From Escherichia phage vB_EcoM_E9.1, in sequence record PP886230: a stretch of 64,000 nt of DNA; one strand, written 5' to 3'. The notes beneath the pieces are model-generated. The model did not search any database. It was not told where the DNA came from and saw nothing but the letters and a program-made list of their open reading frames with translations. Shown here piece after piece: positions 9,334-59,074 of this stretch (position 1 is its first letter; each line of letters opens with the position of its first letter). Position numbers and translations under genes: made by a program.

Positions 9334-9336
9334 AAA

Positions 9337-9432
9337 AGTGGTTGACTTCGGTCAGCCATTTTGCTATTATATATTCATTGAGAGATAGCTCACTAGCCCA
9401 CAGGGTGCAGGAGTGTATCTATTGTATAATGT
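9337..9432 (+). repeat. promoter-containing repeat element (REP copy)
   Basis: ttgacttcggtcag..ctattatat then ..ctagcccacagggtgcaggagtgtatc. Confidence 0.6.
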
Positions 9433-11664: not shown

Positions 11665-12021
11665 ATGGGAATACAACATATCACGCGTACTACTGACAAT
11701 GGCGAGATCACTGGCTATCAAGTACAGGGCAAAGTAGCACAATTGCAGTACTGGTTTGTGAAACGTGGAATCATTGCACCGGATCTTGATTATGACCGTG
11801 TAGCGTTTATTGATTCTCTTTATGTTGATCCTGATAGTCGGGGCAATGGTGAAGGTAACGAATTAATGAATGCCTTTATTGATGCCGCCGATGATTCAGA
11901 TTGTATCATTTTAGAATGCGATACGGGAGAAGATAACGCCTTTAATCTTAAAGAATGGTACGAAGGTTTCGGATTCGAGGTACTGATCGATAGTGAATAT
12001 CCTATCATGATTTTATCATAG
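11665..12021 (+). CDS. putative GNAT-like acetyltransferase (small)
   Basis: VDPDSRGNGEGNELM resembles GNAT motif A and EWYEGFGFEV motif B; assignment tentative. Confidence 0.5.
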   Translation: MGIQHITRTTDNGEITGYQVQGKVAQLQYWFVKRGIIAPDLDYDRVAFIDSLYVDPDSRGNGEGNELMNAFIDAADDSDCIILECDTGEDNAFNLKEWYEGFGFEVLIDSEYPIMILS

Positions 12022-13371: not shown

Positions 13372-13452
13372 AAAAGGGATTGACTCCGGTCAGTCCCTTT
13401 GCTATTATATACGCATAGAAACAATTCAGCCCACCGGGTGCATAAATGTATC
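13372..13452 (+). repeat. promoter-containing repeat element (REP copy)
   Basis: gggattgactccggtcagtccc..ctattatat then ..cagcccaccgggtgcataaatgtatc; Chi GCTGGTGG at 13451-13458. Confidence 0.6.
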
Positions 13453-15184: not shown

Positions 15185-15439
15185 ATGATTAAGGTTCAAC
15201 TATATAAAGATAACATCTTACGGGTACACTATAAAGCACCTCAGAGAATCATCACAAAGGCCGTACAGCTTGCTAATGAGTTTATTAATGGTAACCTATT
15301 ACCAAGGAAGTTAAGCAACGGGAAACTGCGTGTAATCGATGTGGACACTAACAACAGAATAGTAATAGAGAACACAGGAAAAATAAACCTATATGAACAC
15401 CAACAATATAATAAGAAAATAAAACTAATATCACGTTGA
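15185..15439 (+). CDS. hypothetical protein
   Basis: ORF 84 aa. Confidence 0.55.
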   Translation: MIKVQLYKDNILRVHYKAPQRIITKAVQLANEFINGNLLPRKLSNGKLRVIDVDTNNRIVIENTGKINLYEHQQYNKKIKLISR

Positions 15440-15492: not shown

Positions 15493-15735
15493 ATGATTAC
15501 TTTAGAAAAACGTATCAAAGAAACTACATCGCTGGTGGAACTGTTAACAGTACTCAAATGTAAAACAACACCATTCAGCACGCCGGACTTTATTAATATG
15601 GTTGATGTTAATGGTCGCTATCGTATCACGGTCGAACAAGGAGCGGCGAAAGTATTCAGTACTAAAAACACGAAGGAAGTGATCCACGCCGTTAATGTTA
15701 AAAAAGTAGTTGCCATTGATAGTAAAGTACTGTAA
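15493..15735 (+). CDS. hypothetical protein
   Basis: ATG after gggggaaacaaa; the track ORF starts upstream at 15436. Confidence 0.55.
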   Translation: MITLEKRIKETTSLVELLTVLKCKTTPFSTPDFINMVDVNGRYRITVEQGAAKVFSTKNTKEVIHAVNVKKVVAIDSKVL

Positions 15736-15766
15736 GATAGTTACATTAACTCAAGGAGAACATGCA

Positions 15767-16351
15767 ATGCGTAATTATACTAAATTCATCCGTACACTGT
15801 CAGAAATGGAAACCAACAAAGAGATCCTTTCAGCTTGTCGGTTAGCTGGCCTGGAGATCATCGGTGCTGGTTCTTCCCGTATAGTATTCGCTTTAAATGA
15901 TCGGTTAGTGATTAAGGTCGCGAATTGTGATGCGGGTGTAGAACAAAATGAAACTGAATGTAAGGTATGGAATTTTTTAGACTATGACCGCCCTCAGTTG
16001 AAACAGTACTTTGCAAAGGTGCATATGCATTTATGCGATCCTGATAATATGTTTATCGTTATGGATCGGTTGAGTACTGCAAGCAAAGGCAGCGTAAAGC
16101 ACGTTAACGCGTGCAACGAATTAAAGTATAATATTAAACGTAATGCCATTGAACGCCAGCACCGCTTTGCTGATGCACTACAACACGTTGATGATACATT
16201 ATCAACACTAACGATAAGAGATATCAGAAAACAGAATATCGGCCAGGATCGTAATGGACTTATTAAAGTACTTGATTACGGTTTAACCCGCAATATCTGG
16301 AATCAGTACTATAAAAAGCGTGATGTAGAAGCAAGTAAGGTAACACGATAA
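15767..16351 (+). CDS. minimal protein-kinase-like protein (putative Ser/Thr kinase)
   Basis: Gly-rich loop IGAGSSRIVF, VIKV lysine, IRDIRKQNIG resembling HRDLKPENI, and DYG in place of DFG; SD aaggaga 6 nt upstream. Confidence 0.55.
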   Translation: MRNYTKFIRTLSEMETNKEILSACRLAGLEIIGAGSSRIVFALNDRLVIKVANCDAGVEQNETECKVWNFLDYDRPQLKQYFAKVHMHLCDPDNMFIVMDRLSTASKGSVKHVNACNELKYNIKRNAIERQHRFADALQHVDDTLSTLTIRDIRKQNIGQDRNGLIKVLDYGLTRNIWNQYYKKRDVEASKVTR

Positions 16352-16360
16352 AAAAAGATT

Positions 16361-16465
16361 AAAAAAGGGATTGACTCCGGTCAGTCCCTTTGCTATTATA
16401 TATTCATTGAGAGATAACTCACTGACCCATAGGGTGCGGAAGTGTATCTATTATATAAGTATTCA
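16361..16465 (+). repeat. promoter-containing repeat element (REP copy)
   Basis: gggattgactccggtcagtccc..ctattatat then ..cactgacccatagggtgcggaagtgtatc. Confidence 0.6.
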
Positions 16466-18621: not shown

Positions 18622-18705
18622 AAAAAGGGATTGACTCCGGTCAGTCCCTTTGCTATTATATACGCATAGACAAAAACTAGCCCACAGGGTGCATAGGTGT
18701 ATCCA
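18622..18705 (+). repeat. promoter-containing repeat element (REP copy)
   Basis: gggattgactccggtcagtccc..ctattatat then ..ctagcccacagggtgcataggtgtatc; Chi at 18739-18746 just downstream. Confidence 0.6.
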
Positions 18706-19955: not shown

Positions 19956-19959
19956 TGCG

Positions 19960-20200
19960 TAAAGGGATTTAGTACTGATTCAGAAAAAAGTCAAGGCGTT
20001 TTTAAAATTATGCGTTAAAAAAATGCATAGGTAATCCCTTGACTTTTTTGAAATAAAAGGGATTGGACTATGGCAAAATGCGTAGGGGGCTAAAGGGCGG
20101 GTAACCTTAGCGACTTCGATAAAGGGGTATTACGAATAAAATGTTATTGATTTTTTATACGAATCGTATATTATAGGATTGATATTATTTTTAATGGAGT
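19960..20200. promoter_or_regulatory. non-coding junction with inverted repeats (aaaaagtcaagg / ccttgactttttt; aaagggatt x3) at the transition to AT-rich DNA
   Basis: Inverted repeats read directly; base composition changes here. Confidence 0.45.
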
Positions 20201-20204
20201 CCCT

Positions 20205-20402
20205 ATGCGTATTTTAACTAAAGAACAGCACCACGAAAGACTTATCAATAACATGGCTATGATAATGTATAAGTCCCATGACCATGGTATTGCCTATAAG
20301 CGTGAATTAATTATGGCACTATTCATTGGAACTAACTTTCAGGAAAGGTATGTCAACGATTGGATTTGGTATTTAATTGAAGATATAACGAGTAAACTAT
20401 GA
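20205..20402 (+). CDS. family A paralogue (about 70 aa, LGTNYQE-type motif)
   Basis: Motif FIGTNFQERYV. Confidence 0.65.
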   Translation: MRILTKEQHHERLINNMAMIMYKSHDHGIAYKRELIMALFIGTNFQERYVNDWIWYLIEDITSKL

Positions 20403-20599
20403 AAATGCGTATTTTAAATAAAGAAGAATATCAATCACTGTTACGTAAAAACTTCACAAAGATTTATAATACAGACACACACGTAGAACGAATGGAGTTA
20501 TACCTTTTGATTACTTTGGGAACTAACTATCAGGAAAGATGGGTGATTCAATATATGGATACATTGAAAAATAAAATATTGTCCACGAGGAAACAATGA
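20399..20599 (+). CDS. family A paralogue
   Basis: ATGA overlap; motif TLGTNYQERWV. Confidence 0.65.
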   Translation: MKMRILNKEEYQSLLRKNFTKIYNTDTHVERMELYLLITLGTNYQERWVIQYMDTLKNKILSTRKQ

Positions 20600-20805
20600 A
20601 AACTATAACACGAACCCAATCATACGGTCTTATCTTGAAATACATGGACTTAATGGTGGATATCAGCAAAGACCTTCCTAAAACTGAAATTGAAGTTGCA
20701 AGAGCAGAGATCCGCATGTTGGCTGTACTGAACACAAACCATCAGGAAGAGTATGTTGACGATTGGATTCGATTTTTAATAGAAGATATTAAGAGTAAAC
20801 TATGA
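20596..20805 (+). CDS. family A paralogue
   Basis: ATGA overlap; motif VLNTNHQEEYV. Confidence 0.65.
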   Translation: MKTITRTQSYGLILKYMDLMVDISKDLPKTEIEVARAEIRMLAVLNTNHQEEYVDDWIRFLIEDIKSKL

Positions 20806-21017
20806 TTATTATAGAAAACTCATATCAATATACTGAACGCATCGCTGCCAGACAACTTGAAATCCTCATAATATACGAAGAGACTTCTGATTTAAACTTA
20901 GCCGAGGTATTGGAAAATGATATACTATTGGGTGCATTCTTAGGAACAGACTATCAGAAGTATTATGAGGAAAAGTATTTGTCATCTCTTGAGAAATATA
21001 TCAGGAGCAAATTATGA
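20802..21017 (+). CDS. family A paralogue
   Basis: ATGA overlap; motif FLGTDYQKYYE. Confidence 0.65.
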   Translation: MIIIENSYQYTERIAARQLEILIIYEETSDLNLAEVLENDILLGAFLGTDYQKYYEEKYLSSLEKYIRSKL

Positions 21018-21226
21018 TTTTTTTAACACCAGAAGAATATAAGAAACGTTTCAATTCCGCACAGGGTGAAATCTTACTTATATACCTTTCAAATGCAGAC
21101 CTTAACTTATCAAGGGTATTAGAAAAAGATTTACTTATGGGTGCATTCCTTGATACAGACTTTCAGGTGTATTATGTAGGGGAATACTTAATTGCACTTC
21201 AGAATTATATCAGGAGTAAACTATGA
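21014..21226 (+). CDS. family A paralogue
   Basis: ATGA overlap; motif FLDTDFQVYYV. Confidence 0.65.
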   Translation: MIFLTPEEYKKRFNSAQGEILLIYLSNADLNLSRVLEKDLLMGAFLDTDFQVYYVGEYLIALQNYIRSKL

Positions 21227-21441
21227 AACATTTAAGTAATTACGAGAAGAATAAAATTATCGTTGCTGCAATAAACAAATATTTTACACTTCCTCACACA
21301 GAAGGTTTATGTGTAAGGGAACACAGGATAAACACCACCGATATACGCATGATGGCTGTACTGGGGACGAACTTTCAGGAAGAGTATGTTGTTGCACACA
21401 TAGTTGCCCTCACTGATCTAATAAGGGACAAATGTAAATGA
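21223..21441 (+). CDS. family A paralogue
   Basis: ATGA overlap; motif VLGTNFQEEYV. Confidence 0.65.
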   Translation: MKHLSNYEKNKIIVAAINKYFTLPHTEGLCVREHRINTTDIRMMAVLGTNFQEEYVVAHIVALTDLIRDKCK

Positions 21442-21695
21442 AACACTTAACTGATGATGAATTTGAAACTATAATTCGTAAACTAACCCCCATCACAAGG
21501 ATAGTCTACGGTGACCCCAGCCTTACATGGAACCAAATGCGAGCTAAAGTTAATGAGCTATGGTTGCTGTACTTTATGGGGACTCAATATCAAGATAAGT
21601 TTTGCACAGAATATATCGAACAATTAACGAATGTTATACAGGATAAACTAGATGATTATTTGCTCACAAAACATGAAGACTTTATCAGGAGTTGA
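21438..21695 (+). CDS. family A paralogue with C-terminal read-through
   Basis: Motif FMGTQYQDKF; the usual KL-stop/ATGA junction is disrupted near 21645. Confidence 0.6.
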   Translation: MKHLTDDEFETIIRKLTPITRIVYGDPSLTWNQMRAKVNELWLLYFMGTQYQDKFCTEYIEQLTNVIQDKLDDYLLTKHEDFIRS

Positions 21696-21924
21696 GTATC
21701 AAACTGCCCTATTCTCTTTAATCCATACCCTTAGAAAAAACAATGCCTTACATGGTGCACCTGAAGTGGATGTTATCAACGGTGAACTTTATCTTATGAA
21801 ATTCATTGGAACAAACTATCAAGATCTGTTCATTCAACGATACTTATCCGCATTAAGAAACCAAATCCAATATAAAACCATCAAGGCCAAAAAAGAATGG
21901 AATAAACAATGCGACAAAGACTAA
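21652..21924 (+). CDS. family A paralogue (start uncertain, 21652 or 21673)
   Basis: Motif FIGTNYQDLFI. Confidence 0.6.
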   Translation: MIICSQNMKTLSGVEYQTALFSLIHTLRKNNALHGAPEVDVINGELYLMKFIGTNYQDLFIQRYLSALRNQIQYKTIKAKKEWNKQCDKD

Positions 21925-22160
21925 ATCACAAAATGTATTGTAAACTATTGCAGACACTGGCACAGAAACACTATGACACTGTATCTGAAATATTACCCTA
22001 TGATATCATGCGTTTAATTCATAGTGAGGCAGAGATGCTTGTACTGATGACAGGCACTGATAAAAAAGCAATTGCCAAATCAATAGATATGTTCATCGAA
22101 GCACAATGTCAACACATTAGAACCGAGATATGGAGACGAGAGAATGATAACACTAAATGA
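21909..22160 (+). CDS. family A paralogue (divergent)
   Basis: Degenerate motif LMTGTDKKAI at the usual position. Confidence 0.5.
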   Translation: MRQRLNHKMYCKLLQTLAQKHYDTVSEILPYDIMRLIHSEAEMLVLMTGTDKKAIAKSIDMFIEAQCQHIRTEIWRRENDNTK

Positions 22161-22359
22161 GTTTCAGTATCATTGGAGGTTACAAACTATCAAATCAAAA
22201 GTGTATAGTATTGTGTTAAACAAATCTATTGCACAAGAGGACAAATGTGTTATAATAGCTGAAATGAAGTTGGGTGCTTTCGTAGGGACAAACTATCAAA
22301 ACATCTACACTGACGTATTGTTAAGTGCCTTACGTAACAAGGTGGTATCCAAAATATGA
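22144..22359 (+). CDS. family A paralogue
   Basis: Motif FVGTNYQNIY. Confidence 0.65.
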   Translation: MITLNEFQYHWRLQTIKSKVYSIVLNKSIAQEDKCVIIAEMKLGAFVGTNYQNIYTDVLLSALRNKVVSKI

Positions 22360-22574
22360 GAAATTTACAAGGCTTTGAATACATCAGACTCCTGAAAACA
22401 TGCACCAGCAGAAGGAAAATCTTATCAAGCGATAAGAGCATCCAAGCTAACTTTAAGCACGCACTAGTAACTGAACTCTATGTAGGTGCACTCTTAGGCA
22501 CAAATTATCAACAAATGTATGTAGATCTATGGATTGACGCTCTACAGAAAGAGGTTAAAAGTAAATGCAAATGA
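22356..22574 (+). CDS. family A paralogue
   Basis: ATGA overlap; motif LLGTNYQQMYV. Confidence 0.65.
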   Translation: MRNLQGFEYIRLLKTCTSRRKILSSDKSIQANFKHALVTELYVGALLGTNYQQMYVDLWIDALQKEVKSKCK

Positions 22575-22783
22575 TTAATTTAAGTAAAGACGAATTTTAT
22601 GTTATACTGGCGAAAACTTATCCAGCACGTAAGGCCGTTTATGATAGTCACATTATTGAACCCTCAAAGAAGTTGATTTTAGTAAATGAGATAAAGATGC
22701 TTTCAGTCTTAGGAACAAACTATCAAGAGAATGCTGTACTGATGTTAATTGATGCCCTCCAGCGAGAGGTTAAACGTAAATGA
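22565..22783 (+). CDS. family A paralogue
   Basis: Motif VLGTNYQENAV. Confidence 0.65.
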   Translation: MQMINLSKDEFYVILAKTYPARKAVYDSHIIEPSKKLILVNEIKMLSVLGTNYQENAVLMLIDALQREVKRK

Positions 22784-23010
22784 AAATGATTAATTTAACT
22801 TACCATGAATATCAAAAACGTTTAAATGCATCCAGAGATATAAGGATTCAAATATTCAATAACAAAAGATTGAAGCCTGATATCAGGAAAATCAAAATCA
22901 TAGAAGCCGTGTTGTGCAACTTCCTAGGGACTAACTATCAGGAAGGTAAGGTAGAAAACTATCTTATAGAACTCATGAATAGTATTGAAAATAAATGTAA
23001 GGGTAATTAA
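22780..23010 (+). CDS. family A paralogue
   Basis: ATGA overlap; motif FLGTNYQEGKV; C-terminus runs into the duplicated 38-bp segment. Confidence 0.65.
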   Translation: MKMINLTYHEYQKRLNASRDIRIQIFNNKRLKPDIRKIKIIEAVLCNFLGTNYQEGKVENYLIELMNSIENKCKGN

Positions 23011-23011
23011 C

Positions 23012-23251
23012 ATGAAAATGATTAAATTATCTCAAGCAAAATATAAAGAACGCCTGGTAAAAATTGCACCTGGACTTAATGAAATCCATCACGGAGAAGT
23101 CATTAAACACGGAAATAAGATGATTATGAAACTTGAGTTAAAGGTGGGTGCATTCATAGGAACAAACTATCAGGAGTATTATGTAGATGAATACATAATC
23201 GCACTTAAGAGATACATTGGAAGAAAACTATATCTACAAACTAAAGAATAG
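23012..23251 (+). CDS. family A paralogue
   Basis: ATG start MKMIKLSQ (track ORF begins at TTG 22985); motif FIGTNYQEYYV. Confidence 0.6.
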   Translation: MKMIKLSQAKYKERLVKIAPGLNEIHHGEVIKHGNKMIMKLELKVGAFIGTNYQEYYVDEYIIALKRYIGRKLYLQTKE

Positions 23252-23280
23252 TATTGAAAATAAATGTAAGGGTAATTAAC

Positions 23281-23544
23281 ATGCAAATGATCAATTTAAG
23301 TAAAGATGAATATACCGAGCGTATGACAAAAATTACGCACAAACGTAATACAATCTATCACAACCCAGAAATTCAACACAGTAAGAAAATGATTATGATG
23401 CGTGAGTTAAAGATGGGTGTATTCTTAGGAACAAACTATCAAGATACAGAAGTAAATCGCTTAATCGCGGAGTTACTACTGGAAATCAGAGGTAAGCTGT
23501 ACTTTCATCAAATGACCCAACCACTGAGGTGTACTAAGAAATGA
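23281..23544 (+). CDS. family A paralogue
   Basis: ATG start MQMINLSK (track ORF begins at TTG 23254); motif FLGTNYQDTEV. Confidence 0.6.
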   Translation: MQMINLSKDEYTERMTKITHKRNTIYHNPEIQHSKKMIMMRELKMGVFLGTNYQDTEVNRLIAELLLEIRGKLYFHQMTQPLRCTKK

Positions 23545-23756
23545 TCAACATCACATTGCAAGAAAGATTCATCCGAATCAACTATGCAATTACCAAATTA
23601 GATGCTACTATAGGATTCCAAAGTCTACCATACAAAACCAGATTGTTATTAGAGTGTGAAGCTAAGTTGGGTGTACTATTAGGGACGCAACACCAACAAC
23701 GATATGTGGAAATCTGGATTGATCTTTTAACCCAGGATGTACATGAGAGAATGTAA
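23541..23756 (+). CDS. family A paralogue
   Basis: ATGA overlap; motif LLGTQHQQRYV. Confidence 0.65.
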   Translation: MINITLQERFIRINYAITKLDATIGFQSLPYKTRLLLECEAKLGVLLGTQHQQRYVEIWIDLLTQDVHERM

Positions 23757-24011
23757 ATGCAAAATGAAATGATATACTTAACCTATAATGAATACGTCGA
23801 GAGATTAGTTCGTGCCAAGAGATATACCAATAAACGTCCAATTGACCTAAACCAAACCCCTGCCGAAAGGAGTGCAGAAGTTTTATTCCAATCACTACCA
23901 TACCTTCTTGGAACTGATAGACAAGAGGAATATGTTGCACGTATGATTAGATATCTTAAAATCACTATTAAGGAAAAAGTAAATGCAAATGAAATACTTA
24001 ACAGACGATGA
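23757..24011 (+). CDS. family A paralogue
   Basis: Motif LLGTDRQEEYV. Confidence 0.65.
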   Translation: MQNEMIYLTYNEYVERLVRAKRYTNKRPIDLNQTPAERSAEVLFQSLPYLLGTDRQEEYVARMIRYLKITIKEKVNANEILNRR

Positions 24012-24234
24012 GTTAAAAGAACGACTAATTAAATCCAGAAAACTTACAAATCAACTTCCAAACGACACAAACAAGTCACATGCCGAAAGGAGTGCAGAAG
24101 TTTTATACATTCAACTCATGTACTTTCTTGGCACTGACAGACAAGAGTATTACATTGAAAGTATGCTTCGATATCTTAAATTCTCTATAAAGGAAAAGAT
24201 ACATGCTCAAGAATTTAAAAATCCTAACAGTTAA
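23983..24234 (+). CDS. family A paralogue
   Basis: Motif FLGTDRQEYYI; close paralogue of the previous gene (shared SHAERSAEVL). Confidence 0.65.
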   Translation: MQMKYLTDDELKERLIKSRKLTNQLPNDTNKSHAERSAEVLYIQLMYFLGTDRQEYYIESMLRYLKFSIKEKIHAQEFKNPNS

Positions 24235-24445
24235 TGAATATCATACGATTGTAATGAAAACTAATAGTGCAATTTCTAAAAAATCAAACCCAAAGTACAT
24301 ACTGGAACACACATTCGAAGAACGTCAATTAGCTTTAGTTGAAGCAAAACTTCTTGCACTCCTAGGAACAAACTATCAAGAAGAATACATCAGAAAACTA
24401 ATATACCTTTTAACTAAACATATAAGAAAAAGAAAAAATGCATGA
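24203..24445 (+). CDS. family A paralogue
   Basis: Motif LLGTNYQEEYI. Confidence 0.65.
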   Translation: MLKNLKILTVNEYHTIVMKTNSAISKKSNPKYILEHTFEERQLALVEAKLLALLGTNYQEEYIRKLIYLLTKHIRKRKNA

Positions 24446-24672
24446 AACACTTGACAGATGATGAACATGGGCTTATAGTAATGGATGTAATCAACATCGA
24501 ATACAAAAAGTTGATACGCTACCGTTGTTATGAAGATAAGCAACTCGTTCTAGCAGAACAGAAGTTGTTTCGACTCTTAAACACAAACTACCAAGCACAA
24601 TACGAAGAATCGTATATGTACCTTTTGGCGAGGAAAGCAAAAAGAGATTATGAAAATTTTAAGCGAAGGTGA
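24442..24672 (+). CDS. family A paralogue
   Basis: ATGA overlap; motif LLNTNYQAQYE. Confidence 0.65.
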   Translation: MKHLTDDEHGLIVMDVINIEYKKLIRYRCYEDKQLVLAEQKLFRLLNTNYQAQYEESYMYLLARKAKRDYENFKRR

Positions 24673-24865
24673 TTCAGTAATATTACTTATAGAGAATGCA
24701 AGTAAATTCTTAAACATAACACTGTCTGATATAGATGATGATGACAAAGAAGTACTTAGAGCCGATTTAAGAGTTCTTTTATATGTTGGAACTAACTTAC
24801 AAGAGCAATACATTGAGGACTACATCAATGAACTTAAAGAATCAGTACTGAGAAAATGCAAATGA
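24650..24865 (+). CDS. family A paralogue
   Basis: Motif YVGTNLQEQYI. Confidence 0.65.
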   Translation: MKILSEGDSVILLIENASKFLNITLSDIDDDDKEVLRADLRVLLYVGTNLQEQYIEDYINELKESVLRKCK

Positions 24866-25095
24866 AAATCATTACAGAAGAAGAATACCTAACAATCATA
24901 AATGGACTGTTTTTGAAGTTATTTGCCATTAACACATCAAAACTACCAGATACTGATAAAATCATTAAGTTAAATGAAATCTACGTTCAAGCTACTCTAG
25001 GAACTAACTATCAAGAAGCCAATGTGTATAATTACATTAATACACTCAAAAGGGTAATACAATTAAAATGCACAAACATATACACAAACCCCTAG
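24856..25095 (+). CDS. family A paralogue
   Basis: Motif TLGTNYQEANV. Confidence 0.65.
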   Translation: MQMKIITEEEYLTIINGLFLKLFAINTSKLPDTDKIIKLNEIYVQATLGTNYQEANVYNYINTLKRVIQLKCTNIYTNP

Positions 25096-25295
25096 GAACA
25101 GCAGAATACATTGAACTCATGGGATTACACTTCTCATCCTTTAAGAAACTGATGCAAGAATCAAATAATGATTTAGAATATCACATCAAAAGTTCAGATT
25201 TAAGATTGCTACTCACTCTAGGAACAGATTCCCAAGAGCGATTTGTCAATGAGCATATTAGAGCACTTTTAAATGGCATCAGGAATAAACTATGA
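25068..25295 (+). CDS. family A paralogue
   Basis: Motif TLGTDSQERFV. Confidence 0.65.
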   Translation: MHKHIHKPLGTAEYIELMGLHFSSFKKLMQESNNDLEYHIKSSDLRLLLTLGTDSQERFVNEHIRALLNGIRNKL

Positions 25296-25507
25296 AGGAA
25301 ATATCAAATCAAGAGTACTTGGCACTATTCAGGAAGAATAATCACAAATATATGGCACTTGATTCAAGAACTGATATAAGTGAACTTGAAAAAAATCTTT
25401 TGCGTTCAGATATGATAGTACTGACACTCTTAGGAACACAGCATCAAGAGAGAACTGTTAATTCACACATAGGGATTCTTATGCAGATAGTACAGGAAAA
25501 GATATGA
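25292..25507 (+). CDS. family A paralogue
   Basis: ATGA overlap; motif LLGTQHQERTV. Confidence 0.65.
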   Translation: MKEISNQEYLALFRKNNHKYMALDSRTDISELEKNLLRSDMIVLTLLGTQHQERTVNSHIGILMQIVQEKI

Positions 25508-25725
25508 TAATCATAACACAACAAGATATTCTTAAGTTCACAAGGGTTCATGCATCTGAATTTGATGCTATATTATCAAAAAGTTACAACAACCCTTATA
25601 CACAAGATGTACATTACAGTGAATTATGGATGTATATACTTTTAGGTACAAATAAACAAGAGCAAGCAGTACAGAAGTATTTGACAGCTTTACGTGATGC
25701 TACTGCTAATGGAGTACATGTTTAA
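25504..25725 (+). CDS. family A paralogue
   Basis: ATGA overlap; motif LLGTNKQEQAV. Confidence 0.65.
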   Translation: MIIITQQDILKFTRVHASEFDAILSKSYNNPYTQDVHYSELWMYILLGTNKQEQAVQKYLTALRDATANGVHV

Positions 25726-25726
25726 T

Positions 25727-25969
25727 ATGAAAGTACTGACAGAACTAGAAATGTATCATAGATTTAATAAGTACTATCATTTACTTAAGCCTATACAGAG
25801 GATTAAATGTCCATTTGAAGAGAAACAGGTTTTAATCTATGAGCACAAGTTCTTTGTATCATTAGGTACAGATCAACAAGAGTACTATTTGACGTTGTAC
25901 TTGATTACATTAATAGATTTAATTCACTATAAAACAAAACAAGCTAATAAAGAGAAATATGAAAACTAA
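25727..25969 (+). CDS. family A paralogue
   Basis: Motif SLGTDQQEYYL; ATG at 25727 chosen (track ORF from 25694). Confidence 0.6.
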   Translation: MKVLTELEMYHRFNKYYHLLKPIQRIKCPFEEKQVLIYEHKFFVSLGTDQQEYYLTLYLITLIDLIHYKTKQANKEKYEN

Positions 25970-26303
25970 TATACAACTCAAGGTATATAAATCATTTGAA
26001 CATACATATATCAAAAGTAGTCTATGTAGAGATGTAATGGATTACAAGGGTAAGCCATTCACAATTACCTATGATTCTTATGTTAGTGATTTATATATAT
26101 CATTTGTTAATTACGAAAATAAAATATACAAGCACGTTGATATTAAAGATTTAAGTACTTTATCTGAAGAGGAATACTTTCAGGAATCATTAGTATGGGA
26201 TTTAGAGTTTCCTATGCCATTAGTACATAAGATGATAGTACTAATGAAAGAATCTAAACAGGAGCCTAATGGTGATTATGAAGAACACACAGTTGAGTAT
26301 TAA
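25959..26303 (+). CDS. family B paralogue (EEYYFQ-S-L-V-D motif family)
   Basis: Motif EEEYFQESLVWD. Confidence 0.65.
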   Translation: MKTNIQLKVYKSFEHTYIKSSLCRDVMDYKGKPFTITYDSYVSDLYISFVNYENKIYKHVDIKDLSTLSEEEYFQESLVWDLEFPMPLVHKMIVLMKESKQEPNGDYEEHTVEY

Positions 26304-26673
26304 AAGTACTGATAATATTAAGAGTTATACAAGCTCAAGTACTGTGACAATCGAAGTGAATTCTCTTAATGCTGGTAATACAGTAGATAAGTTCTTTATT
26401 GCTCAAGGGTACAGGAAAGATATTCATCAATATTGTTCAGTATATGGGGAGTACAATAGTACTGAAGATATAATTTATTGGTCAACACATCAAGATTATC
26501 TAACTAAAATTGGCGTTCCAGATGTTAGTACTTTATCTGAAGAAGAATACTTTCAGTACAGCTTAGTACATGATTTACCTATACCTTTAGGGTTAATCAA
26601 GGGTATACAGGAAGAGGTTCATAAGCTTAAATCCATGAGTAAAGGTACTTTCATTAGAACAGTGCAATACTAG
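26269..26673 (+). CDS. family B paralogue
   Basis: Motif EEEYFQYSLVHD. Confidence 0.65.
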   Translation: MVIMKNTQLSIKSTDNIKSYTSSSTVTIEVNSLNAGNTVDKFFIAQGYRKDIHQYCSVYGEYNSTEDIIYWSTHQDYLTKIGVPDVSTLSEEEYFQYSLVHDLPIPLGLIKGIQEEVHKLKSMSKGTFIRTVQY

Positions 26674-26732
26674 CTTGACAGTACTTTTCATTACTGATAT
26701 AGTACACTAACGTTAATCATAGGGTAAAAATT

Positions 26733-26978: not shown

Positions 26979-27295
26979 AATTTAATATAGCAAAAACATC
27001 GAGTATATGTATTTTTGGTTATGCAGAAGAGTTAGGTGATATTGACATTCTTTTGTACAAAAAGGATGGTGTTATGCATTTCAAGTACCAGGATGAAGAG
27101 GCAGACAATTATCTTTTACCTAATTTAGTACAAATGCAGGAAGAGGAATTATTCCAGTACAGCTTAATATACGACATTGATATTTGCACGATGCCAGTAC
27201 TAATTAGTATTCAAAAAGTGATGCTCGATATGTATGATAAGCTAATACAAGGTACATCAGGGAGAATCATTGAAATCGATATACAAGACAATTAA
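26975..27295 (+). CDS. family B paralogue
   Basis: Motif EEELFQYSLIYD; ATG at 26975 after SD ggag. Confidence 0.6.
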   Translation: MKFNIAKTSSICIFGYAEELGDIDILLYKKDGVMHFKYQDEEADNYLLPNLVQMQEEELFQYSLIYDIDICTMPVLISIQKVMLDMYDKLIQGTSGRIIEIDIQDN

Positions 27296-27488
27296 TCAAG
27301 AATGGAAGACCCAAAAGTACAGGGAATTCAACAGGAATTTTACAAAAGATGCATTGAATTTAAAAACAACAGAGTTTGATATGTTTATTTTTCTTGGAAC
27401 ACGTTCACAAGAACAATTTGTTCATTATTATATAAATTCGTTGCGAACGGAGATAGTATGCAAAACACAGGGTATTATAAAAAGGTAA
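27270..27488 (+). CDS. family A paralogue (satellite copy)
   Basis: Motif FLGTRSQEQFV. Confidence 0.6.
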   Translation: MKSIYKTINQEWKTQKYREFNRNFTKDALNLKTTEFDMFIFLGTRSQEQFVHYYINSLRTEIVCKTQGIIKR

Positions 27489-27724
27489 ACCAATATTTGT
27501 ACGCTACAAAGTACAGGGATTTTTGTTTAAAGGGTGGTGATGAAGATTTTTCTTTGCGATTATCAGAATTTAATCTGTTATTTTATCTTGGTACAAAAGA
27601 ACAAGAAGAAATGGCACAGAAATTTATCAAGCACCTTGTACAAAAAATTAATATGCAAATTTTGATGCTTAAGATACAGAATGAGATAAATGAATATGAA
27701 TCCAGAAATAGTTCAGGATCTTAA
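27458..27724 (+). CDS. family A paralogue (satellite copy)
   Basis: Motif YLGTKEQEEMA. Confidence 0.6.
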   Translation: MQNTGYYKKVNQYLYATKYRDFCLKGGDEDFSLRLSEFNLLFYLGTKEQEEMAQKFIKHLVQKINMQILMLKIQNEINEYESRNSSGS

Positions 27725-39274: not shown

Positions 39275-39807
39275 TGAAAGTTAACATCAATGACTTTGAT
39301 GCATTACAAGATTTATCAAAAAAGATTCGCACCATTGTACCAGTACTCAAAAAATGCAGTACTGGTTTAATCGATCCTAGTACTGTTGTTAATGAGAAGT
39401 ACAATTTTCATTATGTATTACAGGGTACTGGGGCATTCCAGAAGTGTGAGGTGCGTGAGACACACGTAATTGATACATCATTGTTTTCTATTGGTGCACC
39501 TGTGTCGAATAATACTATTTTCCTAGACAACGCTGGAAATATTCAACAATTAACATTTAAGAAAAGGAAAAAGAACAATAACATTGGTGTGTATGCGATG
39601 AAGTGGGGTCAACCTGATTTGAAGCGTGAAATTCACATCCCTAAGTACAATTACAATTCATTTGACGAACAGTGTTTTCAACTATCGTGTACTGACCCTG
39701 ACTATGCTATTATTCAGTTCTATATGGAATTGCAGATTGCATTTAACAGTAATTTGTATATTAACTTATTGGCGATGAACATCGATGAAGTATTCAAAAA
39801 CATTTAA
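39271..39807 (+). CDS. family B paralogue (divergent)
   Basis: Motif DEQCFQLSCTD. Confidence 0.6.
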   Translation: MMKVNINDFDALQDLSKKIRTIVPVLKKCSTGLIDPSTVVNEKYNFHYVLQGTGAFQKCEVRETHVIDTSLFSIGAPVSNNTIFLDNAGNIQQLTFKKRKKNNNIGVYAMKWGQPDLKREIHIPKYNYNSFDEQCFQLSCTDPDYAIIQFYMELQIAFNSNLYINLLAMNIDEVFKNI

Positions 39808-40003
39808 TCGAATTGAATACATGAGAACTGTGAGTGCAGTGTGGGACATATGGTTCACTACTAAACCAAAAATGGATTACCATGACTTTAAGCTCTTGTT
39901 CTTCGTTGGCTCTAACAAACAGGATGTTGCAATGAAGGGTTATATTCAGCACTTACAGGAACTAATCCAGAAGAGAATATATGAAAATAATAGACCAAAA
40001 TGA
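39785..40003 (+). CDS. family A paralogue (satellite copy)
   Basis: Motif FVGSNKQDVAM. Confidence 0.55.
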   Translation: MKYSKTFNRIEYMRTVSAVWDIWFTTKPKMDYHDFKLLFFVGSNKQDVAMKGYIQHLQELIQKRIYENNRPK

Positions 40004-40172
40004 CATTGCTAAACTATTCAATATATATTCTACTAGAATGATGCAAACCGACTCATATAGTACTGAATTCAAAGAGTTGAAAGTCCTGATGTACTTGGGA
40101 ACCCAATATCAGGAACAAGTTATTTTGGAATATATTAATTCGCTGAAGAAGGATATCCGTTATGTACGATGA
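39981..40172 (+). CDS. family A paralogue (satellite copy)
   Basis: Motif YLGTQYQEQVI. Confidence 0.6.
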   Translation: MKIIDQNDIAKLFNIYSTRMMQTDSYSTEFKELKVLMYLGTQYQEQVILEYINSLKKDIRYVR

Positions 40173-58552: not shown

Positions 58553-59074
58553 ATGTCGAAGAAGGATACTTCGAACAAACATTCAGTACACTTCAGTACT
58601 GGTAAAGATAACTGGACAACTCCAAAAGATTTCTTTGAAGAGTTAGATGAGTTATGGGGATTTACGCTTGATGCTGCTTGTGTTGATGAGACTGCATTAT
58701 GTGAGAATTATTTTACACCAAATGATGATTCTCTTTCACAGGATTGGGGAAAGAATATAGTTTGGTTGAACCCTCCATATAGTGATTTGAAAACATGGTT
58801 ATCTAAAGCAGTAGATGCGTATAATAAAGGGGCAACTGTATTAATTCTTGTACCATCAAGAACGGATACTATAGCTTTTCAGGATTATGCTGCGAAAGTT
58901 TGTGATTGTATTTGTTTTATTAAGGGAAGGTTACGATTTGGTATCCCAGAAGAACCAGAGAAGAAAACAGATTCAGCACCATTTCCTTCGTGTCTGATAG
59001 TACTAGATAAGTACTTAACCACTGCTAAAATCAATTATCTTAAATCTCTTGGATTGGTGATGAAGAATTTATGA
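58553..59074 (+). CDS. phage Dam-type DNA N6-adenine methyltransferase
   Basis: N-terminal W-TP..FF..LD..WGFTLDAA and catalytic NPPY motif. Confidence 0.8.
   Translation: MSKKDTSNKHSVHFSTGKDNWTTPKDFFEELDELWGFTLDAACVDETALCENYFTPNDDSLSQDWGKNIVWLNPPYSDLKTWLSKAVDAYNKGATVLILVPSRTDTIAFQDYAAKVCDCICFIKGRLRFGIPEEPEKKTDSAPFPSCLIVLDKYLTTAKINYLKSLGLVMKNL

Follow-up and report, generated by a model that had tools for sequence, protein, structure and literature searches.

What does a phage gain from a long row of small, related genes placed back to back on one strand? This question is raised by positions 20205-25969 of the sequence analysed here, a stretch of 64,000 nucleotides (nt) from Escherichia phage vB_EcoM_E9.1 (record PP886230), which is called the window below. 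The genes in this row, together with a few relatives further downstream, form what we call family A, and a second set of paralogues, family B, adjoins them. Family A is a small soluble non-virion four-helix protein of about 70 amino acids, present in 30 diverged copies, 26 of which are packed into one unit that occupies the first unique position of the genome. As for the function of these proteins, we lean tentatively, at somewhat less than an even chance, to the view that they are early intracellular binders, each with a different target in the host or in a rival element, which together form a host-takeover or counter-defence panel.

The listing of open reading frames (ORFs) shows that 20205-25969 is exactly filled by 26 successive plus-strand ORFs of 65-96 codons, in agreement with the original prediction of about 26 back-to-back paralogues, and the four satellite copies proposed at the same time were found as the ORF pairs 27270-27488/27458-27724 and 39785-40003/39981-40172. 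A six-frame scan of the window with a hidden Markov model (HMM) detected these 30 copies and no others; because the model was built from the same 30 copies, the scan is partly circular, and the independent test is PHROG 4148, which was matched by all 10 copies tested (E = 7e-9 to 3e-21) over approximately profile positions 1-72 of 74. PHROG 4148 is the same family as family A, and its entry carries no statement on function, structure or copy number.

The genes are tightly packed along the whole array. An ATG overlaps the upstream stop codon as ATGA at 14 of the 25 internal junctions (56%), so that the earlier description of the genes as mostly joined in this way was a slight overstatement, while the tight packing that it described holds throughout: the remaining 11 junctions have overlaps of 8-44 nt or a spacing of 0-2 nt, and a start candidate is always found at most 2 nt from the preceding stop. 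Several copies end in I-R-S-K-L, a C-terminus that encodes an AGGAG ribosome-binding site as well as the overlapping start of the next gene. These stop/start overlaps suggest that the genes of the array would be translationally coupled. The packed unit runs past family A, as two family B genes (25959-26673, plus strand; the first is 25959-26303) join it without a gap, and the first gap after the array, which contains a promoter-like site, lies at 26674-26732.

The individual copies, all on the plus strand, are given here with their HMM E values. Copy 1 (20205-20402, 65 amino acids, 7e-20; PHROG 4148 E = 1.2e-19) is followed by a series joined through ATGA overlaps, namely copies 2 (20399-20599, 1.6e-19, alternative start at 20405), 3 (20596-20805, 5.3e-23), 4 (20802-21017, 1.6e-18; PHROG 4148 E = 1.9e-17), 5 (21014-21226, 1.8e-21, with an AGGAG Shine-Dalgarno sequence within the last codons of copy 4), 6 (21223-21441, 4.6e-24, also matching PHROG 4148) and 7 (21438-21695, 9.7e-26, with a C-terminal extension). 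Then come copies 8 (21652-21924, 2.1e-19, likely start at 21673), 9 (21909-22160, 2.5e-18), which in the alignment has the most divergent motif, T-G-T-D-K-K, and a two-residue insertion, and 10 (22144-22359, 5.7e-24). ATGA overlaps recur at copies 11 (22356-22574, 1.1e-25, the copy used for structure prediction) and 13 (22780-23010, 1.3e-25), and copy 12 between them (22565-22783, 2.2e-23) has its ATGA start at 22571. Copies 14 (22985-23251, 5.3e-26, likely start 23012 or 23018) and 15 (23254-23544, 2.1e-25, likely start 23281 or 23287) are duplicates of each other; copy 16 (23541-23756, 1.5e-21) again begins at an ATGA overlap and is followed by copies 17 (23757-24011, 9.9e-22), 18 (23983-24234, 3.4e-23) and 19 (24203-24445, 1e-21, also matching PHROG 4148). 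The last part of the array consists of copies 20 (24442-24672, ATGA overlap, 2.1e-16), 21 (24650-24865, 5.5e-22, acidic, net charge -6), 22 (24856-25095, ATGA start at 24862, 8.4e-24, PHROG 4148), 23 (25068-25295, 7e-21), 24 (25292-25507, ATGA overlap, 9.6e-22, PHROG 4148), 25 (25504-25725, ATGA overlap, 3.5e-22) and 26 (25694-25969, 3.1e-22, likely start 25727), which ends the array and overlaps the first family B gene. The satellites are copies 27 (27270-27488, TTG start, 8.4e-21; PHROG 4148 E = 7.2e-9), 28 (27458-27724, 1.6e-18), 29 (39785-40003, 5.7e-17, with the motif variant G-S-N-K-Q-D) and 30 (39981-40172, 4e-18; PHROG 4148 E = 1.2e-16). The youngest duplication in the window is that of copies 14 and 15, a 226-nt direct repeat with 76% identity and a period of 269 (22950-23175 and 23219-23444); the two share an identical upstream TTG-initiated leader, M-K-I-N-V-R-V-I-N-M, which makes the choice of the start codon there ambiguous.

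Is it the protein or the DNA that has been conserved in this array? The conserved C-terminal block that had been claimed is present at high counts over the 30 copies: G48 in 27/30, T49 in 29/30, N/D50 in 24/30, Q52 in 29/30, E/D53 in 23/30, Y/F55 in 19/30, V/I56 in 23/30 and L63 in 29/30, with approximately 15-20 residues C-terminal to the motif. The conserved residues are each encoded by 2-6 synonymous codons (Gly48 by GGA/GGG/GGC/GGT at 15/5/4/3, Gln52 by CAA/CAG at 19/10, Thr49 by ACA, ACT, ACG and ACC, and Leu63 by five codons), and the motif is conserved at the protein level, not at the DNA level. When orthologues from phAPEC6, ph0011, UE-S1, BF17 and 121Q (reciprocal-best pairs, 23-28 of the 30 copies per genome) were concatenated, the ratio of nonsynonymous to synonymous substitution rates (dN/dS) was 0.26-0.33, and at most one gene per genome comparison exceeded 1. 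Each copy is held under purifying selection in the related phages; the order of the orthologues is colinear with phAPEC6, UE-S1 and BF17, but not with ph0011 or 121Q. Because of the synonymous codon variation and this dN/dS, selection acts on the family A protein, which disposes of the possibility, raised with the original prediction, that the motif region is a conserved nucleic-acid element. The broader explanation, that the copies are functionless decaying duplicates or such an element, could appeal to some DNA-level repeats at the motif and the junctions and to the fact that family A has no assigned function. However, 30 of 30 frames are intact, the predicted fold described below is confident, and the codon usage and dN/dS speak against it as well, so we consider it extremely improbable. 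A non-coding RNA or tRNA explanation was likewise rejected, as no Rfam family and no tRNA was matched in the window.

What kind of protein is it? AlphaFold2 was run on copy 11 with the 30 paralogues as alignment, and the model consists of four helices at residues 6-14, 17-25, 31-45 and 52-71, with a predicted local distance difference test (pLDDT) score of 97.2 and a predicted template modelling (pTM) score of 0.81. DSSP assigned a single beta-bridge, from residue 2 to residue 49, and family members in BFVD, which were predicted independently, superpose at a template modelling (TM) score of up to 0.92. From these helices and the bridge it follows that the conserved G-T would lie at the link between helices 3 and 4, touching the conserved N-terminus M-K/I-x-L, and Q52-E53 start helix 4. 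Conserved hydrophobic residues occur with helical spacing (L4, Y9, L13, I23, I29, V36, L41, L43, F46, L47, Y55, V56, Y59, I60, L63, I67), E8, E40 and K70 are further conserved polar positions, and the entropy is above 3 bits at almost all other positions, which presumably lie on the surface of the modelled protein. The paralogues have a median pairwise identity of 24% and a maximum of 54%, the latter between copies 17 and 18; their net charge ranges from -6 to +8 and their isoelectric point (pI) from 4.4 to 9.9 (median 8.65), and neither Cys nor His is conserved at any position of the 30 copies. To us, this pattern looks like that of a scaffold that is kept constant while its surfaces are free to vary. 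The variation between phages has a similar pattern, since orthologue replacements concentrate on the columns that vary among the paralogues (Spearman rho 0.53, p = 2e-6; 21% vs 12% differences). The family also changes faster than its surroundings: its omega of 0.28-0.38 is about twofold that of the genes in the terminal repeat that precedes the array (0.16-0.17), and dN against 121Q is 0.087 in family A and 0.025 in the next 28 kb (3.5 times).

Searches against known proteins gave little beyond the family itself. No Pfam, NCBIfam or PADLOC model recurs among the 30 copies, and the PADLOC hits are nine different models, one copy each, with a best E of 6e-4; PDB sequences searched with the family A profile gave matches at chance level (E >= 0.63), and Foldseek of the model against viral models returned own family members only. 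One lead was that the L-G-T-x-x-Q-E block resembles by eye the L-G-V-S-x-Q-T-V sequence found in many helix-turn-helix proteins, and with a median pI of 8.65 the copies might be small DNA-binding regulators, each recognising a different site through this block. A precedent for such an expansion is phage G, in which about 35 copies of a zinc ribbon have been suggested to be transcription factors (PMC7824862). We regard this explanation as very unlikely, because none of the 30 copies matched a helix-turn-helix model of Pfam or NCBIfam at E <= 10 or E <= 1, and the tri-helical helix-turn-helix fold was not found in family A; the helix-turn-helix reading of the block was rejected on these two grounds.

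Another possibility is that family A works on the neighbouring family. Family B consists of E-E-x-Y-F-Q-x-S proteins encoded at 25959-54270 on the same strand and is itself a large paralogous expansion adjoining family A; like family A it has no assigned function, and its omega is similar (0.28-0.32). The suggestion that the two families may be related was not borne out: hhalign of 30 A against 34 B sequences gave a probability of 0.14% and E = 0.43 with one aligned column, and the predicted folds differ, as the AlphaFold model of family B is alpha/beta, with a helix, four strands and then further helices. The resemblance of GTNYQE to FQxS was rejected as homology; the A motif lies at the junction of helices 3 and 4 and the B motif within a helix. 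Family A proteins could nevertheless be adaptors, chaperones or inhibitors that partner family B proteins. There is no gap between the A array and the B genes that come first, both satellite pairs lie inside the B array, each directly 5' of a larger gene, and in EC.P1 (338002-338808) and UB (185239-186045) a 269-amino-acid protein has an A domain fused in frame to an unrelated domain of 200 amino acids, which shows that the A domain can serve as a module attached to another protein. Yet there is no one-to-one pairing of A and B genes, 26 A genes precede any B gene, and the two families have neither a sequence nor a fold relationship. Nor does the fused domain belong to family B; it is absent from the window, and relatives of it occur only among the hypothetical proteins of RaK2-like Klebsiella phages. 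Thus, a partnership with family B seems decidedly unlikely to us.

How widespread and how old is the expansion? The family A profile, searched against 1.84 billion representative proteins, matched 96 clusters, nearly all of 52-122 amino acids, and the named relatives are all from Asteriusvirus phages or from Escherichia coli assemblies carrying them on contigs of about 350 kb; such assemblies fit reports that Asteriusvirus phages persist in bacterial isolates. The same arrays are carried by metagenomic contigs. Five related Asteriusvirus genomes have 27-32 copies each. Outside this group, tblastn with the consensus found weak copies in Klebsiella Alcyoneusvirus phages only, for which the copy count comes from an HMM search of one phage, Muenster: at least 12 dispersed matches lie in the 30 kb past its repeat and include the first two genes there. 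The Muenster copies are 28-46% identical to the window copies and about as distant from one another, and for 16 of the 30 window copies the nearest relative in this comparison is another window copy. Family A is an old and retained expansion with a narrow distribution, which may have arisen within this lineage.

These data also bear on the idea that the copies join as subunits in a single hetero-oligomeric assembly inside the cell, for example a helical bundle, a ring or a filament, made in equal amounts by means of the overlaps. The 14 ATGA junctions and the single gap-free unit of 26 A and two B genes would suit this idea, as would the retention of every copy in related genomes and the conserved hydrophobic residues with a/d-like spacing on the 20-residue last helix. 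It is harder to reconcile with a monomer model that needs no partners to be compact and highly confident (pLDDT 97, pTM 0.81), with a wide range of surface charge that shows no obvious complementary pairing, and with the copy numbers, because 27-32 copies within the genus and about 12 dispersed ones in Muenster hardly fit a fixed stoichiometry. We therefore judge such an assembly to be unlikely. A place in the virion is not indicated: the 62 proteins detected in purified phAPEC6 particles (Table 1, PMC7247149) include no family A orthologue of that phage (gp462c-gp489c), with the limit that mass spectrometry can miss small proteins.

The position of the array in the genome leads back to the view of family A as early binders. 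By megablast, 33 phage records match 20205-25969, all of them Asteriusvirus of E. coli or Salmonella, including PBECO4, 121Q, phAPEC6 and BF17, with identities of 85-97%, and every gene within the matches is annotated as 'hypothetical protein'. The window and the BF17 record align from the first position of each, and the right-end copy in BF17 ends at window position 20107. Direct terminal repeats (DTRs) of 20,668-21,525 bp have been reported in Asteriusvirus from PhageTerm analysis, with confirmation by restriction digests for fEgEco12 (PMC13070987, PMC11895373). The window is therefore the left genome end of an Asteriusvirus jumbo coliphage (PBECO4/121Q/phAPEC6 group), with the DTR, on the evidence of the BF17 end alignment, at 1 to about 20107, and the family A array begins 98 nt past the end of it. 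Neither the HMM scan of the window nor the Asteriusvirus genomes compared showed any family A copy within the DTR. The DTR has small plus-strand genes behind strong sigma-70 promoters: 12 perfect TTGACA-16/17-TATAAT sites are present on its plus strand, and promoter-like sites number 108, compared with 65 +/- 9 in shuffles. All of the perfect promoters are on the plus strand and stand before small genes with gaps of approximately 80 nt between them. For PA5oct, a related phage, early transcription of the genes in the terminal repeat has been reported.

The boundary of the DTR and the leader of the array fall within a non-coding gap of 249 nt on the plus strand (19956-20204), which is conserved among six genomes, with 98-100% identity over about 200 nt, whereas the family A genes of these genomes differ by 3-30%. 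A possible role of this gap is that of a terminase or repeat-boundary signal, together with the promoter of the array. A candidate sigma-70-like promoter on the plus strand, TTGATT-16-TATTAT at 20147-20174, identified by consensus match only, lies about 30 nt before the first start codon, and the aligned sequences of relatives, as we read them, come nearer to the consensus, with TTGACT in the -35 box, followed by TAAAAT or TATTAT. ATGCGT is repeated several times in the gap, which also has an inverted repeat, AATCCCTT...AAGGGATT.

On this basis, we propose that the host RNA polymerase would transcribe the array early, either starting at the conserved sigma-70-like promoter or reading through from the strong promoters of the repeat, and that the stop/start overlaps would couple translation, so that all family A copies would be produced together. 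Each copy would then bind stoichiometrically, via its own variable surface, a different macromolecule of the host or of a competing element. The array would in this way be a host-takeover or counter-defence panel of binders on a single scaffold, and would correspond in a phage to the multigene families that large eukaryotic DNA viruses carry. In its most specific form, which we hold to be rather doubtful, the proposal is that the array encodes about 30 binders sharing a four-helix scaffold not described before, and that each of them would neutralise a different protein of host defence or housekeeping as infection begins. In a variant of this form, the copies would join into a heteromeric structure inside the cell that is peculiar to these jumbo phages, which do not form a nucleus.

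Several observations weigh against a panel of independent binders. The targets, the binding and the early timing of the copies are putative. With omega at about 0.3, selection on the genes is purifying and of an ordinary kind, and positive selection was not demonstrated. The conserved polar cluster E8/E40/N50/Q52/E53 could form an active or ligand site common to the copies, and this would speak for a single function and not for many targets. Genes whose translation is tightly coupled more typically encode the subunits of one complex than independent effectors. The array region has no surplus of sigma-70-like sites (45 vs 49 +/- 6), and the lone promoter candidate upstream of it scores 9/12 in the window. 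Furthermore, profile and structure searches found no match between family A and known anti-defence or host-takeover proteins. In a comparison with the immunity-protein arrays of polymorphic toxin loci, the copies matched no immunity family, and no toxin domains were found in the scanned subset of neighbours. The Asteriusvirus and RaK2-group papers and the jumbo-phage comparative review that we searched do not describe family A, its 26-gene array, its position or its fold, and a literature search for jumbo-phage paralogues in tandem that act against host defences gave no relevant result.

Other features of this genome type were noted along the way. An identical 38-nt element, AAAGGGATTGACTCCGGTCAGTCCCTTTGCTATTATAT, occurs in the DTR at 13373-13410, 16364-16401 and 18624-18661, with a variant at 9335-9372; it forms a 12-bp stem-loop, one arm of which includes the -35 box of a TTGACT-17-TATTAT promoter, and it is similar to the 'promoter early stem-loop' cassettes of T4-type phages. 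Few genes are recognisable; those in the DTR are one for a GNAT acetyltransferase and an ORF with weak similarity to protein kinases, at 11665-12021 and 15710-16351, and a Dam-type adenine methyltransferase lies past both arrays at 58553-59074; all of these are typical early or host-modifying functions. A precomputed Pfam match to ParE_like, a toxin family, exists for an 84-amino-acid DTR gene on a metagenomic Asteriusvirus contig (1511-1765), the probable counterpart of which in the window is 15185-15439. At the other end, BF17 has approximately 16 tandem minus-strand paralogues of about 380 amino acids at 338-357 kb, just before the right repeat, some of them annotated as 'regulator of chromosome condensation', and the 'DNA condensation proteins' of the phAPEC6 virion, gp003-gp010 and gp549/551, may be their counterparts. 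These paralogues would make a third large expansion in this genome type.

How does family A compare with known systems? Many paralogues are known in jumbo phages, and in RaK2 they make up about 10%. The closest parallel in copy number is the zinc ribbon of phage G, where tens of copies of one small domain likewise occur in one phage lineage with a very large genome and the function of the domain is only guessed, as with family A. However, family A is all-alpha and lacks a Cys/His metal site, and most of its copies form one unit of overlapping genes at a defined genome position. The terminal redundancy of Bacillus phage SPO1 and the pre-early region of T5 are host-takeover modules at genome ends. 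They and the PA5oct repeat region resemble the present locus in having many small, non-virion genes on one strand at the probable first-entering end, with strong host-type promoters; the difference is that those modules contain mostly unrelated genes with their own promoters, whereas family A is one paralogous, operon-like family outside the repeat. The Bcl-2-like proteins of poxviruses and the MGF proteins of African swine fever virus are multigene families of large eukaryotic DNA viruses, and the likeness may be that a small helical scaffold is repeated in tandem near genome ends, with diverged surfaces binding host defence proteins. There is no homology between these families and family A, and the analogy is one of mechanism only.

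Family A was already present in PHROGs and in GenBank as hypothetical proteins, and what appears to be new, against the papers searched, is the 26-gene array, its position and its fold. Genes without known function make up about 80% of jumbo-phage genes and 83% in phAPEC6 (PMC7247149), and this phage type devotes approximately 6 kb to family A and 28 kb to family B, both of them expanded families that directly follow the terminal repeat. In family A, a small fold that is predicted with very high confidence is available in 30 natural variants, in which the core is fixed and the rest is varied. Asteriusvirus phages are in development for therapy and often persist in E. coli isolates (bioRxiv 10.1101/2024.12.31.630880), so the roles of their early genes carry practical weight. 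If the copies are host-directed binders, they would be ready probes or inhibitors with which to study the proteins or defence systems of E. coli, an example of effector diversification by tandem duplication, and a compact scaffold for protein engineering. If the panel of binders is real, the array would give bacterial viruses their first equivalent of the tandem multigene families by which poxviruses and African swine fever virus evade immunity.

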